A stretch of DNA of 64,000 nucleotides from Candidatus Woesebacteria bacterium GW2011_GWB1_39_10 (GTDB lineage: Bacteria > Patescibacteriota > Microgenomatia > UBA8517): assembly GCA_000993205.1 (NCBI GenBank), contig LBVU01000003.1:161008-225007 (forward strand), read 5' to 3'. The position numbers were made by a program, and so were the translations under genes. The notes beneath the pieces are model-generated. The model searched no databases, was not told the DNA's origin, and saw nothing but the letters and a program-made list of their open reading frames with translations. Each line of letters begins with the position of its first letter. Positions within the stretch are counted from its first letter, which is position 1. Of this stretch, positions 59,555 through 64,000 are shown one piece after another.

Positions 59555-59626
59555 TCCCCTGTAGCTCAATGGTAGAGCAGAATCCTGTTAAGATTAAGGT
59601 TGCTGGTTCGAATCCAGCCGGGGGAG
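59555..59626 (+). tRNA. tRNA-Asn (anticodon GUU)
   Basis: Acceptor UCCCCUG/CGGGGGA, D-arm GCUC-AAUGGUA-GAGC, anticodon loop CUGUUAA, T-arm GCUGG-UUCGAAU-CCAGC, discriminator G. Confidence 0.75.
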
Positions 59627-61105
59627 CAAGTGGCTCCTTATTATAATGTGGTTCTGCCTACGTAAGGTTGCAAACACGGGTGTTTCAACAACTCTTGTAA
59701 TCTCCTTATCTTTGATATAAATGCCCTCAAAGAAGAATCTTAAGTAATGTCTCTTTAGGTGGGGTGGGGCCTCCAGATATGTCTGATGGATATTTCTTGT
59801 AAGAGCAAGAACTTCGTCGACAAGATTTATATCCAGTTTTTGCCGACCCTCCAATTCAACCAGCCGGTCATTAAGATTATTTATCTGTTCCTGAAGTTTG
59901 ATGTGTTGCCTTTTGAAAACATCCCTGCCTATAACACCCTCAACCAGAAGGTCTTCTAATTTATTCCTATGCTTTTCGATGGCTCTTTTTTGATTGACGA
60001 TTATTTGCCTTTCTGATTTGAAGGTTTTTCTTCCGCCTTCGAAGTGCTTTCTAATCTTTTGTCTTACAAGTTCAGTAAATTCTTGGCCGAATTGGAAGTT
60101 TTTGAAGAGATTGGCAACTCTTTTTTCCATGTCCTCTAATTCAATAAACGATCCAGGACAACCACCCGGAGTATAGCAGTGATAGTAACCAATCCGATCC
60201 TTTTTATAACCATTGTGATGGTAATAATGCCATTCTGCGGTCAGTCTGGAGGAGTGCTCCGAACAAAAAACAATTCCCCTTAAAAGGAAATTGTGCTTTC
60301 TCTGTCGAATTAAAAATTGTCTGTGCTTTGCCGCTGTAAGTTGGCATTGGTCGAACAAGGCCTTGGTTATTAAAGGTGTGTGGTTTCCCGTCTTCTCTGT
60401 TCCTCCCCATTTCATTAAACCGTAAAAGAAGGGGTTGGATAGTAATTGTTGGAGGCTGCTATCACAAAACATCTTTCCGTTCCTTGCAGTAAGACCTTTT
60501 GAGAACATCTCCTTCGACAGCCGTACATAAGAGTAATTGCCTGTGGAATATAGATTAAATGTTTCTTCTACCAATGGTGCCGTAATTGGATCAGGCACGA
60601 CTATTTTTTTATTATTCTTCCTTATGTTTTTGTATCCCACTGGAGCCCAACCCGGCCACCATCCATCCCTATACTTCTGCCTCAGAGCATCTTTTGTTCT
60701 TTGTCCGTTGACCTCACTTTCCCATTCGGCTACTGAGGCAAATATATTGCCAATTAGTCCGTTTCCCACGTCTCCACCCTCAACAATGGAAATTAAACTG
60801 ACTCCTTTATTCCTGAACTCCTTTCTTATCCTCGAGAAGTCAGCAACATTCCTGGCAAATCTGTCAATCTTATAAACAATTACAGAATCGACAGGGTTAT
60901 CGTCAACGGCCTTAAGAAGTTTTTGGAATTCCGGTCTCTCTACGGTTCTGGCACTTTTTCCTTCCTCCAAAAAAGCACTCTTTATTTGGTATCCATTATT
61001 TTTGGCATACTCAACACAAGCCCTTTTTTGGTTATCGAGAGAAAAACCTTCCTTAGCCTGTTCATCCGTGCTCACGCGTAAATAGATATAGCAAGCCTTA
61101 TTCAT
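59594..61105 (-). CDS. large serine recombinase (resolvase/invertase catalytic domain plus recombinase and zinc-ribbon domains)
   Basis: CYIYLRVSTDEQAKEGFSLDNQ (catalytic Ser in RVSTDEQ), DSVIVYKIDRFARN, 503 aa, C-terminal Cys/His-rich region. Confidence 0.8.
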   Translation of the reverse strand: MNKACYIYLRVSTDEQAKEGFSLDNQKRACVEYAKNNGYQIKSAFLEEGKSARTVERPEFQKLLKAVDDNPVDSVIVYKIDRFARNVADFSRIRKEFRNKGVSLISIVEGGDVGNGLIGNIFASVAEWESEVNGQRTKDALRQKYRDGWWPGWAPVGYKNIRKNNKKIVVPDPITAPLVEETFNLYSTGNYSYVRLSKEMFSKGLTARNGKMFCDSSLQQLLSNPFFYGLMKWGGTEKTGNHTPLITKALFDQCQLTAAKHRQFLIRQRKHNFLLRGIVFCSEHSSRLTAEWHYYHHNGYKKDRIGYYHCYTPGGCPGSFIELEDMEKRVANLFKNFQFGQEFTELVRQKIRKHFEGGRKTFKSERQIIVNQKRAIEKHRNKLEDLLVEGVIGRDVFKRQHIKLQEQINNLNDRLVELEGRQKLDINLVDEVLALTRNIHQTYLEAPPHLKRHYLRFFFEGIYIKDKEITRVVETPVFATLRRQNHIIIRSHLLPRLDSNQQP

Positions 61106-61281
61106 ATGTAAAATACGTGATGGCAGTTAGGACATACAAAAGTGTCGGTATATTTAAAATCTTCAGATGTAGCGTCAGTGATAGATAAATCTTTGGTAAT
61201 TAAAATCGTGCCATAGCAATAAGGACATTCAACCACCCTCGGATCAACGGTCAGAACAATGGCTTGTTTGTGTTTATTCAT
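61102..61281 (-). CDS. small (59 aa) zinc-ribbon protein immediately upstream of, and overlapping, the recombinase start (possible directionality factor or regulator)
   Basis: Hand-translated MNKHKQAIVLTVDPRVVECPYCYGTILITKDLSITDATSEDFKYTDTFVCPNCHHVFYI*; CxxC...CxxC; below the ORF-track cutoff. Confidence 0.4.
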   Translation of the reverse strand: MNKHKQAIVLTVDPRVVECPYCYGTILITKDLSITDATSEDFKYTDTFVCPNCHHVFYI

Positions 61282-61300
61282 TTCGTGTCACATCCATCCG

Positions 61301-61552
61301 CTAGTCATCTTCGGTAAATACATTGAAAGCGAGCCAAAAGCTGCCTCGGCTGGTATAGTCTCCATCGTTCCAAAAATCTGTAAACTTTCCGAAATTATCA
61401 AATGACTTGCCGTAACTTACCTTTAGATAGACTTTTAAACCCTTAATCCTCCAGTTTATTAGGCGTGCCTTTTTTAAAAAAAGCCTTTTCTTTCCAGTTC
61501 TGTACTTATCCATTAACTTCCTGTTTTTGTATATTTTTATTAAAAATTTCAT
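61301..61552 (-). CDS. hypothetical small protein (mobile-element cargo)
   Basis: ORF only. Confidence 0.3.
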   Translation of the reverse strand: MKFLIKIYKNRKLMDKYRTGKKRLFLKKARLINWRIKGLKVYLKVSYGKSFDNFGKFTDFWNDGDYTSRGSFWLAFNVFTEDD

Positions 61553-61689
61553 ACCTAAATAAGTTCCTATTGATAACCATTTTTTGTGTTGCTATCCTAT
61601 CCATACAAACAGGACGTTGCCACTAAAACGGCGCAACCTATGCGTAAAATAGAGGTTCTTAGTTTCTAGCTGGAGCCTCTATTTTTTGG

Positions 61690-61995
61690 TTAATTAATTT
61701 TATGTACTCTTAGATCAAAATATAAGATACAAATACCCCATAGGAAAATATCCATGAATATAGCCAATGGAACCAGAGAAAAATTGGATTTATATGTAGT
61801 ATCGATAATCTTTTGATTATCGATACCGCGAGCGGTTTCGGGCGCTCGCGAGATACCTTCAGAGACAGATCCTTCATTAAAAAGATTCATATTATTATTT
61901 AGGTGGAAACCCATTTCCCTTGGAAACAGGAAGGCAAATTCCTCTACAAGCGGAATGATGTTACCCATTTGAAAAGCGGAAATATTTTTCCTCAT
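61690..61995 (-). CDS. hypothetical small protein (mobile-element cargo)
   Basis: ORF only; 4-nt overlap with the upstream gene. Confidence 0.3.
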   Translation of the reverse strand: MRKNISAFQMGNIIPLVEEFAFLFPREMGFHLNNNMNLFNEGSVSEGISRAPETARGIDNQKIIDTTYKSNFSLVPLAIFMDIFLWGICILYFDLRVHKIN

Positions 61996-62312: not shown

Positions 62313-62334
62313 CTCAATCGAAACACTCTCTTTG

Positions 62335-62586
62335 TCAGATTTCGTAATCTCTGTGAATCAAACCTTTTAAGTAATCAAAATTGTCAAATAGGAGACGGGG
62401 GTTTGCGGATGCCCTGTTTGTCCAGTATCGCTGAAGCAGGTTCTTGACCTCCGGAGTGTTAGGAAAGCAAAAGTGAACTTTTTGTGGGTCGCTTTTGATT
62501 ATTTTTACAATAGATATACCCTCCGTAAGAAGATATGCGGACGATTTGATATCAGAAGTCTTAAATAATTCAGTTTGTTTCTCCAT
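62335..62586 (-). CDS. hypothetical small protein
   Basis: ORF only. Confidence 0.3.
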   Translation of the reverse strand: MEKQTELFKTSDIKSSAYLLTEGISIVKIIKSDPQKVHFCFPNTPEVKNLLQRYWTNRASANPRLLFDNFDYLKGLIHRDYEI

Positions 62587-62769
62587 GGTTAATCTTAATA
62601 ATCTTTTTGTTTCTTCTGGTTTTTATGTATGTAGTGTGTAACTCCAGCATTTTGGCAACCAACTCTGCCGCTGCATCAATCTCTTTGTTATCAATCTCAA
62701 TAGGCTTTTCCATAAATGAATAATTTATGTCTTAATTTTCCTATAAAAAGAAGTTGTTAGGTTGGAAAA

Positions 62770-63468
62770 CTAGAAAGCTGGAGCCTTCTCAACAAGAGAT
62801 TTGTATGTTTCGACACCTTTCCTGATTGTGCTTTCGTTGAAGCAAGTACACCCTTTGGGTTTGTTTCTACCAATGTCGTGAGGTTCTTTAATTGGGCACG
62901 CTTCTGTTTCTCCATCGGCAATATCTTTAAATGGTTTTCTTGATCTATAAGCAAGGTACCACTCTCGGTATTTTTTAATTGATGGTTTCTTTTTATCAAC
63001 CTTCCATACAGGATTGATGTACTCGTATTCTGGAACACCCTTTTCGTTTCCAATTTTATCTGCGTATTCCCAGTAGGCTTTAAGTACATCCTCATTTCTA
63101 ACACCTGGAGAAAGGACTATAAAATATGTCTCGTCGAGCATCTTCCCCTCGGTATCGAAGGTATCAAGAGTAGAGTCGAGATAGGCTGGTAGATAATCCC
63201 CGTCGGAAATTGCCCCACATAAGGCCGCCTTCTCGATTACTCGTCTAAAGACAATTGGTAAATAAAGACGTTTCCTGCTTTTTTCCACCTCTTTTTCTAG
63301 AAATTTTTCATCACCTGCAAATTGGTTATATTTATCTTGGGGGAGGAGGGTGCTAATTCCTACAACCGTTCTTATCCTCCCAATCTCTTTCGAGAATTTA
63401 TCCCGGTCAACAACGGGTGCAACATCCGCAAACAGCCTGTCATCGGTTATATCAATCTTAATATCCAT
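62770..63468 (-). CDS. hypothetical protein with a C-terminal Cys cluster
   Basis: 232 aa; ...ETEACPIKEPHDIGRNKPKGCTCFNE; no family recognised. Confidence 0.35.
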   Translation of the reverse strand: MDIKIDITDDRLFADVAPVVDRDKFSKEIGRIRTVVGISTLLPQDKYNQFAGDEKFLEKEVEKSRKRLYLPIVFRRVIEKAALCGAISDGDYLPAYLDSTLDTFDTEGKMLDETYFIVLSPGVRNEDVLKAYWEYADKIGNEKGVPEYEYINPVWKVDKKKPSIKKYREWYLAYRSRKPFKDIADGETEACPIKEPHDIGRNKPKGCTCFNESTIRKGVETYKSLVEKAPAF

Positions 63469-63785
63469 CTGGTTGGAATTATAATCCTTTCAACAACAGA
63501 GTTGTCTCAAAATTAGCATGTATATTGAGGCCAGTACGGCAAAATTCAGGGGAGTTTTGAGAGCAAAAACGCCAAAAATTGTATATTTGTTTATTCAGCC
63601 TGCAGTACATATAATAAGACCATCAGATTACCTAAACCCATTTAGGGCATGGTAGCAAATCCTTGAGAGGAGAAAGCCCGTCATCGAGCACCTCTCAAGG
63701 TCGTATGGGGAAACCCGTACGGGTAGCGCAAGCTATCACGGTGGCGGGCTTTTTGTTCGCCACCCACAGAGTAGGGGGTGAAACT

Positions 63786-64000
63786 AATGGGTCTATTTGG
63801 AATAAATCATGACAAAAATGAGCGAGTGTTATCATTCGCATTTGGTGGCTATAAATTTAAAGCCGACGACAAATATATCTCGTACCAAAGCGCATATGGG
63901 CGTTCATTTAAAGTCCTAAAATCAGATATTGAAACGGTAAGCTTGGATTCGGGAGGCGCTGGTAAAAACAAGATTAAATTAAACAGCAAAGGCACACTAC
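63786..64000 (+). CDS. hypothetical protein, 3'-truncated by the window end
   Basis: ATG at 63786, open to 64000 (MGLFGINHDKNERVLSFAFGGYKFKADDKY...); preceded by a run of hairpins. Confidence 0.3.

Follow-up and report, generated by a model that had tools for sequence, protein, structure and literature searches.

Near the end of a 64,000-nucleotide stretch of DNA from Candidatus Woesebacteria bacterium GW2011_GWB1_39_10 (contig LBVU01000003.1; the whole stretch is called the window here, and positions are counted from its first letter), a gene for a large serine recombinase (LSR) runs into the 3' end of a tRNA-Asn gene. We consider it highly probable that this region is the tRNA-proximal part of an integrative element of 13,064 bp, which we call element 1, and that its recombinase, LSR1, drove insertion at the tRNA-Asn end from an attachment site (attP) located within the recombinase gene.

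The recombinase and the tRNA gene that it overlaps

The two genes are convergent and overlap by 33-34 nt. A first-pass annotation, made from the sequence alone, had described a tRNA-Asn(GUU) with a 503-aa LSR gene covering its last 33 nt, and both features hold: ARAGORN and Rfam agree on the tRNA, and the recombinase open reading frame (ORF) carries the Pfam domains given below. The features of the junction are:

59555..59627, + strand: tRNA-Asn(GUU), gene intact after integration, its T-arm and acceptor 3' strand serving as B arm of the attachment site (ARAGORN; Rfam 59555-59626, 66.4 bits)
59621..59627, no strand: attL core GGGGAGC (GCTCCCC on the recombinase strand), with the crossover placed within it (homology stop, attP symmetry centre)
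59628..59650, no strand: P' arm of the attachment site, within the recombinase coding sequence (anchored junction alignment)
59594..61105, - strand: LSR1, 503-aa LSR in its integrated, truncated form (Pfam, catalytic residues, PDB matches, homologues)

By every sequence criterion that we tested, LSR1 is a bona fide large serine integrase. It matches Resolvase (PF00239, 1.9e-36) and Recombinase (PF07508, 3.2e-13), and its Zn_ribbon_recom match (PF13408) scores 24.3 bits, just below a cut-off of 25.3 bits that is passed by most homologues and by LSR2, the recombinase of a second element described below. The catalytic residues R10, S12, D81, R82 and R85 and the cysteines C281, C310 and C316 do not vary among 32 aligned homologues, and the PDB matches include the catalytic domain of the TP901-1 integrase (6.5e-20) and SPbeta YokA (3.9e-11). 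An AlphaFold model of the homologue P0063 contains catalytic, recombinase and zinc-ribbon domains and two long helices at 344-440. A protein search with LSR1 returned 531 homologues, almost all of them from Microgenomates and other bacteria of the candidate phyla radiation (CPR). Residues ~1-495 of LSR1 are element-encoded and the final 8-10 come from antisense tRNA, the last 10 residues, LPRLDSNQQP, being the antisense of the acceptor stem and T-arm.

Association with tRNA genes across the recombinase clade

A scan of one genome per species yielded 78 related loci, and convergent tRNAs were counted in the 68 that have at least 100 nt after the recombinase gene. In 56 of these 68, a convergent tRNA overlaps or abuts the recombinase 3' end. 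ARAGORN typed 42 of the 56 as tRNA-Asn, nine of them with an intron of ~200-260 nt, and gave another type to five more intron-containing convergent tRNA genes; sister groups of the recombinase sit at tRNA-Glu (6 loci), tRNA-His (2) and tRNA-Gln (1). The proteins carry the same imprint. Among the best 120 of the 531 homologues, C-termini diverge at one point, beyond which 55 tails read ..LP(R/G)xDSN.. or ..IRT.., which are a tRNA T-arm translated antisense in two frames, 44 end no more than four residues on, inside acceptor-stem codons, and 21 are of other kinds. With convergent tRNAs at so many loci, and 99 of the 120 homologues ending in antisense-tRNA or acceptor-stem codons, the overlap is not a product of chance.

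On the tRNA side of the junction, the host context dnaG-rpoD-tRNA-Asn recurs, with rpoD in 27 and dnaG in 25 of the 78 loci. Gene content on the element side is variable: DUF5659 proteins, the most widely shared in the element family, occur in 37 loci, XRE-type regulators in 28, excisionase-like helix-turn-helix (HTH) proteins in 24, a family of 232-aa proteins in 22 and type I/III restriction-modification genes in 10-14, and HTH_36 or Rep-like proteins are also found there. Empty sites exist in Microgenomates relatives: L165 has dnaG, rpoD (66% identity) and tRNA-Asn with no recombinase, and L122 (rpoD 73% identity) is likewise empty. The comparison of tRNA-Asn loci that the first-pass annotation had proposed brought out variable cargo, tandem arrays, attP-state copies of the recombinase and recombinase-free rpoD-tRNA-Asn loci. 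Conserved gene order, which it had named as a sign against a mobile element, is present in part: a recombinase beside tRNA-Asn is conserved in many CPR genomes, but the cargo differs and some sites are empty. Because of these differences, arrays, attP-state copies and empty relatives, the conserved adjacency is, on the sequence comparisons made here, a matter of site specificity and not of core-genome status.

In many CPR tRNA-Asn genes beside these recombinases, the anticodon loop is interrupted by an insertion of ~200-260 nt (L021, L023, L025, L029, L039, L043, L071, L078, L083 and others), and the insertion in L046 (17609-17881) scores as a group I intron (Rfam Intron_gpI, 85.5 bits). ARAGORN needs its intron option to see these intron-bearing genes and assigns some wrongly to Thr or Asp.

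An attachment site inside the gene

When junctions of the Asn clade are aligned by codon (~60 junctions), all recombinase genes end in (G/A)TTATAATAA-N13-GCTC|CCC, in which CTCCCCC.. is the antisense of the tRNA end. In LSR1, the P' arm motif TTATTATAA lies at 59638-59646, where the recombinase strand encodes a conserved I-I-I, and P' arm plus core make up codons 487-497. Recombinases that stand free of a tRNA (L022, L042 and L069) run instead into an inverted copy of the P' motif, forming an intact palindromic attP whose symmetry centre falls on GCT[C]CCC; that of L022 reads GTTATAATAAC AGCTTTCAGCTC CCCAGCTCTGAAG TTATTATAG. These attP-state recombinases have ~40-50 extra codons. By tblastn, their tails recur as orphan exons in ~19 integrated loci, each lying 6-11.4 kb upstream of the recombinase gene and oriented like it, with none on the host side. 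The orphan exon spans ~40 codons with the motif IGELRQRWEEIKKL, its peptides share F(Q/E)N..YIGELRQRWEEIKKL, and in most of the ~19 loci ..(T)GGCTC(CC) and a P arm come before it. TTGGC, to the left of the core, is the reverse complement of the encoded GCCAA end of the tRNA, as in unoccupied genes. For element 1, the reconstructed site (attP1) is AACCACATTATAATAAGGAGCCACTTGCTCCCCAGCTCTGAAGGTATTATAAAGG, with a perfect 8-bp inverted partner, TATTATAA, equidistant from the core (8/8). On the tRNA side, nucleotide homology of the element to L006, whose recombinase is 85% identical to LSR1, ends at 59624.

Because attP-state genes, orphan exons and the TTGGC/GCCAA end fit together, we place integration in the last bases of the acceptor 3' strand. 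Sequence comparison shows attP to lie in the recombinase gene, as it shows the site preference of the clade, the orphan exons, the element boundaries and the empty sites; we infer that integration splits this gene, regenerates the tRNA and duplicates the core only. In the circular form, attP would sit in the 3' part of the gene, with the 8-bp motifs TTATAATA and TATTATAA placed 14 nt either side of GCTCCCC, and the gene would encode a 537-aa enzyme with a helical tail of ~42 residues. This enzyme would recombine attP with a chromosomal site that has the T-arm and acceptor 3' strand of tRNA-Asn as one arm and the CCA end and trailer of the tRNA as the other, the crossover falling in the final few acceptor-stem bases. 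With A72-G73-C74 at the tRNA terminus provided by the element, the tRNA would be regenerated; the recombinase gene would lose its last 42 codons, left at the far end as the orphan exon, and would read 8-10 antisense-tRNA codons in their place to give the 503-aa protein. The 7-bp core would be the only sequence to be duplicated.

A search of L001 for inverted P' motifs gave two weak candidates, at 5069 and 7489, which were dropped once the far end had been located; the one at 7489 is the -10-like sequence upstream of an RNA motif treated below. In L052 (2571-3053) and L060 (11458-11771), a full-length attP-state recombinase is followed, ~80 nt past its stop codon, by 50 nt that repeat a recombinase 3' end (..NMVRLRTVQLP) and are joined to tRNA-Asn. 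The arrangement is kept in both genomes and looks like a tRNA-proximal element deleted down to its two ends.

A direct repeat limited to the core

The first-pass annotation had looked to a direct repeat of the tRNA-Asn 3' segment downstream; such a repeat is absent, and the sole repeat left by integration is the core, GGGGAGC. The 29-mer at the tRNA 3' end has no second copy in the window with up to three mismatches and is single-copy in each longer contig. No repeat of 59594-59626 longer than 11 nt occurs within 10 kb, at the window locus or at ~40 related loci. The best non-self match to the tRNA 3' segment in L001 is 11 nt long, in the T-arm of a host tRNA-Ser, and the best on the element side is 10 nt. 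Over the same distance at ~40 tRNA-Asn loci, the final 45 nt of the tRNA have a same-orientation match of 8-11 nt at best, as long as that in the inverted-orientation control. Because a serine integrase is expected to leave only a short core, the long-repeat test is invalid here and would have led us to reject the element wrongly; the 7-bp core is the trace to be expected.

A distant sister clade (L087-L092, 28-31% identity) is found at tRNA-Glu. In L090 (5103; 11478-11552), the tRNA-Glu 3' end is present as a 21-nt direct repeat, its copies 5 kb apart, and the position of the crossover relative to the tRNA therefore differs between clades.

Extent of element 1 and a second element in tandem

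Contig L099 (run SRR29904086) has the same sequence as the window at 59921-64000 and runs 17 kb further. It carries a far copy of the core at 12764-12770 (window-equivalent 72,684-72,690), so the other attachment site does lie outside the window, as had been supposed at first, and on the same contig. Element 1 would accordingly very probably extend from window position 59624 to window-equivalent ~72,690, or 13,064 bp, with its first third (4.4 kb) visible in the window.

The far junction on L099 reads P'(LSR2)-GCTCCCC-AGCTCTGAAGGTATTATAA and lies in the 3' part of a second recombinase gene. LSR2 belongs to a second, tandem element (L099 12635-17474, window-equivalent ~72,555-77,400); it is 537 aa long, encoded on the - strand and 44.6% identical to LSR1, and 45 codons before its stop the recombinase strand reads ..GGTCAGATTATTGAATGCTCA[GCTCCCC]AGCTCTGAAGGTATTATAAAGG.. 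The right-hand arm of the junction differs little from L022's P arm. When its outer 8-bp motif is inverted, it matches the P' arm of LSR1 at 8/8 positions and that of LSR2 at only 5/8. The exon at the far end is in frame with LSR1, and over 36 aa it shares 38.9% identity with the orphan exon of L006. From the arm symmetry, the reading frame and the likeness to the L006 exon, we conclude that the far junction is best explained as a hybrid site, P'(LSR2)-core-P(element 1), at which element 1 has its far end. LSR2 would then have borrowed its last 45 codons from that end, and excised LSR1 would be a 537-aa protein ending ..LLPSSEGIIKALNRIIEVFSNPIEVEVVRTRFEEIKKISDALIIA. Beyond LSR2, L099 has five unannotated genes, an HTH_3 gene and then metabolic genes. 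What stands at this tRNA-Asn is, judged by these junctions, a pair of related elements in tandem, and similar tandem arrays are found in L046 and L021/L022.

Cargo genes and the LOOT RNA

Between the recombinase and the end of the window lie the following features, the first seven of which belong to a leftward operon that ends in LSR1:

61102..61281, - strand: 59-aa zinc-ribbon protein, CxxC...CxxC (ORF; weak zinc-ribbon Pfam matches; L006 homologue)
61301..61552, - strand: small ORF, 70-83 aa as called (homologues directly upstream of the recombinase in L018, L064, L066 and L071)
61690..61995, - strand: 101-aa ORF, called in all contigs, with no Pfam or PHROGs match
61992..62312, - strand: HTH_36 winged-helix protein, 106 aa (Pfam 2.4e-12; PHROGs replication initiators down to 3.2e-10)
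62335..62586, - strand: DUF5659 protein (Pfam 2.1e-10; family upstream of the recombinase in 37 of 78 loci)
62570..62713, - strand: 47-aa ORF, called in all contigs
62770..63468, - strand: 232-aa protein that has no known domain and opens the leftward operon (family in 22 of 78 loci)
63620..63745, + strand: LOOT RNA (RF03000), transcribed away from the recombinase operon, with the rightward genes next (Rfam; model built in this analysis)
63787..64000, + strand: start of a 95-aa ORF that runs past the window end, first rightward gene (gene calls on L001 and L099)

The 59-aa zinc-ribbon ORF that had been reported to overlap the recombinase start does so, by 4 nt. A homologue of its protein with 31% identity occupies the corresponding place in L006, and the position of the 59-aa protein, coupled in translation to LSR1, makes it a candidate directionality or accessory factor. 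The 232-aa family lies on the recombinase strand in every one of its 22 loci. Likeness of the HTH_36 protein to the phage O-like and DnaD-like replication initiators of PHROGs is confined to their N-terminal DNA-binding domain. An earlier description of the region up to the window end as small ORFs with a winged-helix protein is right about these genes and overlooked the LOOT RNA.

Rfam finds this RNA at 63629-63737 (+) with 83.1 bits against a gathering threshold of 46.4 (model positions 1-121), and a model built in our analysis scores 128 bits at 63620-63745. Related copies are present in 10 of 79 related loci (L006 5880-6008; L018 6941-7071; L061 7822-7950; and L027, L036, L034, L058, L088, L024 and L030), all of them on the element side, 2-7 kb from the recombinase and on either strand; the host flanks have none. 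In both L001 and L006, the -10-like sequence CATATAAT precedes the RNA and a same-strand ORF follows it, and a 72%-identical homologue of the 95-aa ORF adjoins LOOT in L061. The motif is typed in Rfam as a small RNA and is an orphan; it is not discussed in the main text of the paper describing it. Its distribution suggests that LOOT is carried by mobile elements.

Rightward of the LOOT RNA come, in order, the 95-aa ORF and Vsr (+), Dcm (-), ORFs of 75, 196, 605 and 474 aa, a 420-aa trypsin-like protease and a 457-aa ORF (+). A type II cytosine methyltransferase with Vsr is also identified by PADLOC, which matches the protease weakly to proteases of defence systems; within the 474-aa protein there are RNA-polymerase alpha-CTD, sigma region 4 and HARE-HTH-like segments. 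Protease homologues with 75-78% identity end other methylase/helicase/nuclease blocks beside DUF5659 and HTH_17 genes, and the protease lies in differing defence-type blocks in L096, L106 and L109. Because close homologues of the protease sit in such blocks, we read the rightward block, in which the unannotated proteins and the protease form a putative defence operon, as probable defence cargo, and the protease may be part of a defence module that has not been described. Two candidate host markers were discarded. The protease was ruled out as a marker of the right boundary, its homologues lying inside other defence-type cargo next to DUF5659 and HTH_17 genes, and the Dcm/Vsr/605/474 block was ruled out as host synteny, since it recurs only in L046 and is attached to a recombinase there too.

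The protease (L099 10001-11263; also L096 and L106-L110) has 989 homologues at E <= 1e-30, the best 120 of which are 67-78% identical and mostly from Woesebacteria. Its gene recurs after a PD-(D/E)XK nuclease, at the end of blocks made up of a SNF2 helicase and an N6-methylase (Eco57I-like).

Alternative explanations and present mobility

Several observations weigh against the account given above, in one part or another. All 13 LSR1-carrying and all 22 protease-carrying contigs show the same occupied arrangement, and neither an excised circle nor a site lacking element 1 was found among them. JGI metagenome contigs do not contain the tRNA|P'(LSR2) junction (..ATCCAGCCGGGGGAGCTGAGCATTCAATAATCTGACC) that loss of element 1 should leave. 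The Rep-like HTH_36 gene encodes 106 aa, compared with 247-263 aa for Rep_O in L006 and ~250 aa in relatives, and element 1 lacks the XRE-type and excisionase-like HTH genes carried by 24-28 related loci. The far boundary rests on the symmetry of an 8-bp motif and on exon similarity, with no empty site from the same species, and L099 shows no convincing core, P arm or exon at which element 2 could end on the right. The attL and attR registers of L006 share no clean dinucleotide and disagree with the spacing elsewhere; an exact crossover dinucleotide derived from this pair was therefore dropped, and our claim is limited to the 7-bp core. In the model of the attP-state homologue P0063, the core is confident, whereas the helical C-terminal tail has low pLDDT values (43-55) and says little about function.

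Element 1 may thus be decaying or fixed. It could have integrated as proposed and since become a remnant unable to excise or replicate, a reading that departs from ours only on present activity. The uniformly occupied contigs, the lack of an attB-like junction in the metagenomes searched, the replication-initiator-like protein cut to its N-terminal domain and the missing XRE and excisionase-like genes speak for it. Set against these are an intact recombinase ORF with all catalytic residues, an orphan exon that is intact, in frame and true to the family motif, and reconstructed attP arms of perfect 8-bp symmetry, and on balance we find a fixed remnant possible though unlikely. Rather more doubtful is the view that LSR2 has an intact attP of its own in the palindrome-like site at its 3' end, the true right end of the island lying elsewhere and the 17-kb region forming one composite element with two recombinases. 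Intact attP sites do occur in chromosomal contigs, for instance L022 on a contig of 512 kb, and the right end of element 2 was not found, but the P arm fits the P' motif of LSR1 better than that of LSR2 (8/8 versus 5/8), LSR2-type P' arms (GTCAGATTA) pair elsewhere with TAATCTGAC-type P arms, as in L052, and the exon is similar to that of L006, which has the recombinase closest to LSR1.

Temperate phages often carry serine integrases, and the replication-initiator-like HTH protein of element 1 matches PHROGs phage families. A prophage or prophage remnant is nonetheless very improbable: Pfam and PHROGs reveal no capsid, portal, terminase, tail or lysis gene in the 13 kb, their phage-type matches being limited to replication-initiator and sigma-like proteins, no virion gene is among the recurrent families of the 78 loci, and scans of IMG/VR with the protein and with an alignment found no relatives of the recombinase. 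Least credible of all is a domesticated, immobile core gene that lies beside tRNA-Asn by chance. The adjacency and the dnaG-rpoD-tRNA-Asn context do recur across many CPR lineages, but relatives with rpoD followed by tRNA-Asn lack the recombinase, element-side genes vary from locus to locus, tandem copies are present in L046 and L021/L022, and attP-state copies and orphan exons exist; empty relatives and variable cargo therefore exclude this explanation for practical purposes.

Exact-protein look-ups for an empty site of the same strain returned only occupied contigs. In a metagenome scan, the tRNA end with its encoded CCA was found at 64 loci, 60 of them with no adjacent recombinase, the empty relatives L165 and L122 being two of these 60; the 28-nt tRNA-Asn end lies on 64 metagenome contigs, where it is in many cases followed by G+C-rich sequence unlike CPR DNA. 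One metagenome contig of 990 nt, L016 (ERZ909595), ends exactly at ..CCAGCCGGGGG, which is window position 59624 and the inferred junction. Heterogeneity at the attachment site could have broken the assembly there, but this is a single case.

Other features of the window

Directly upstream of tRNA-Asn, at 56746-59463 (+), lies an adjacent trio of genes for an ATP-grasp_2/Citrate_bind protein (382 aa), a CoA_binding/Succ_CoA_lig protein (300 aa) and a short Citrate_synt-domain protein (221 aa). The trio resembles an ATP-citrate-lyase or citryl-CoA-type set; a reduced CPR genome would not be expected to have one, and none of the 78 related loci carries the trio at this position. Further into the host side, the region 46690-52418 contains a tmRNA (tag AKSYDSASDYAGNFAFA) near a cluster of five tRNA genes (four Ser, one Arg), and a PhD/ParE toxin-antitoxin pair between dnaG and an Exo_endo_phos gene.

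Discussion

Serine integrases have found wide use in genome engineering; in nature they almost always target protein-coding genes. The characterized large serine integrases TP901-1, A118/LI, SPbeta SprA, Bxb1 and phiC31 target protein-coding or intergenic sites and have attP beside the integrase gene, not inside it. LSR1 shares with them its domain architecture and short, imperfectly palindromic attachment sites with a small core. In the survey of Mageeney et al. 2020 (PMC7192596), 44.5% of tyrosine integrases used t(m)RNA sites versus 14 of 297 serine integrases, and such use by serine integrases was stated not to have been reported before. We found no paper linking large serine recombinases, tRNA and Patescibacteria.

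In myxophage Mx8, attB overlaps tRNA-Asp and the target is that tRNA's 3' end. Its integrase, IntP/IntX, also has attP within the integrase gene, and integration replaces 112 C-terminal residues by 13 (PMC4701971, in its passage on Mx8, which cites Magrini et al. 1999). The same passage states that the shortened integrase was shown experimentally to have reduced activity. Element 1 resembles Mx8, as described there, in having attP in the integrase gene and a short new tail (42 residues exchanged for 8), and differs in that Mx8 is a complete phage with a tyrosine recombinase, another chemistry and a longer identity segment. The streptococcal integrative and conjugative elements (ICEs) at rumA come closer in enzyme type: they have a single large serine integrase, an attachment site in its own gene, C-termini that differ between excised and integrated forms, and direct repeats of 2-21 bp (PMC4701971). 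Their target, however, is the protein-coding rumA, whose own 3' end is also exchanged, they are conjugative and live in Firmicutes rather than CPR hosts, and a conserved orphan exon with a shared C-terminal motif is not described for them in that paper.

Attachment sites in integrase genes are also listed for SSV1-type archaeal integrases (PMC8371274), whose gene is likewise partitioned by integration into a tRNA gene. These are, however, tyrosine recombinases of archaeal viruses that separate large parts of the gene, whereas LSR1 would lose its last 8% and keep its catalytic and DNA-binding domains together. Classic tyrosine-type islands (Islander type, PMC7192596) share with element 1 an integrase that abuts the tRNA 3' end, a restored tRNA, tandem accretion and defence cargo. 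The initial description of this locus as a classic tRNA-targeted island was sound in naming a serine-recombinase integrative element at the tRNA-Asn 3' end, but the class itself does not fit. No Phage_integrase domain is found in any ORF of the element by Pfam and PHROGs scans, the 33-nt overlap consists of host tRNA and was not supplied by the element, there is no displaced copy of the tRNA 3' end beyond the 7-bp repeat, and the element would supply ~3 terminal nucleotides of the tRNA. An attP inside the gene, as in Mx8 and the rumA ICEs, is an uncommon arrangement with precedent.

Tentatively, and with less than even confidence, we propose that element 1 belongs to a large, hitherto undescribed lineage of CPR serine integrases specific for tRNA 3' ends (Asn, with sister groups at Glu, His and Gln) in which the in-gene attP acts as a switch. 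Integration would remove the C-terminal helix IGELRQRWEEIKKL, alter activity or directionality and lock the element in, and excision would rebuild the gene; because only the tRNA-side arm would need conserving, tandem arrays of defence-carrying elements, some with LOOT, could build up.

As a single locus, the one studied here is ordinary in outline. What is noteworthy is the tRNA specificity of the whole clade, the split gene with its orphan exon, the tandem accretion and the link to LOOT, for which these elements provide a first genomic context. The clade is a populous natural one, with hundreds of members that appear to recognize a highly conserved tRNA end, and its built-in C-terminal difference between integrated and excised forms of the enzyme is directly testable. 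Mobile elements of CPR bacteria are poorly charted, and the orphan exon together with the core motif may offer a simple signature by which to delimit them and their defence cargo.

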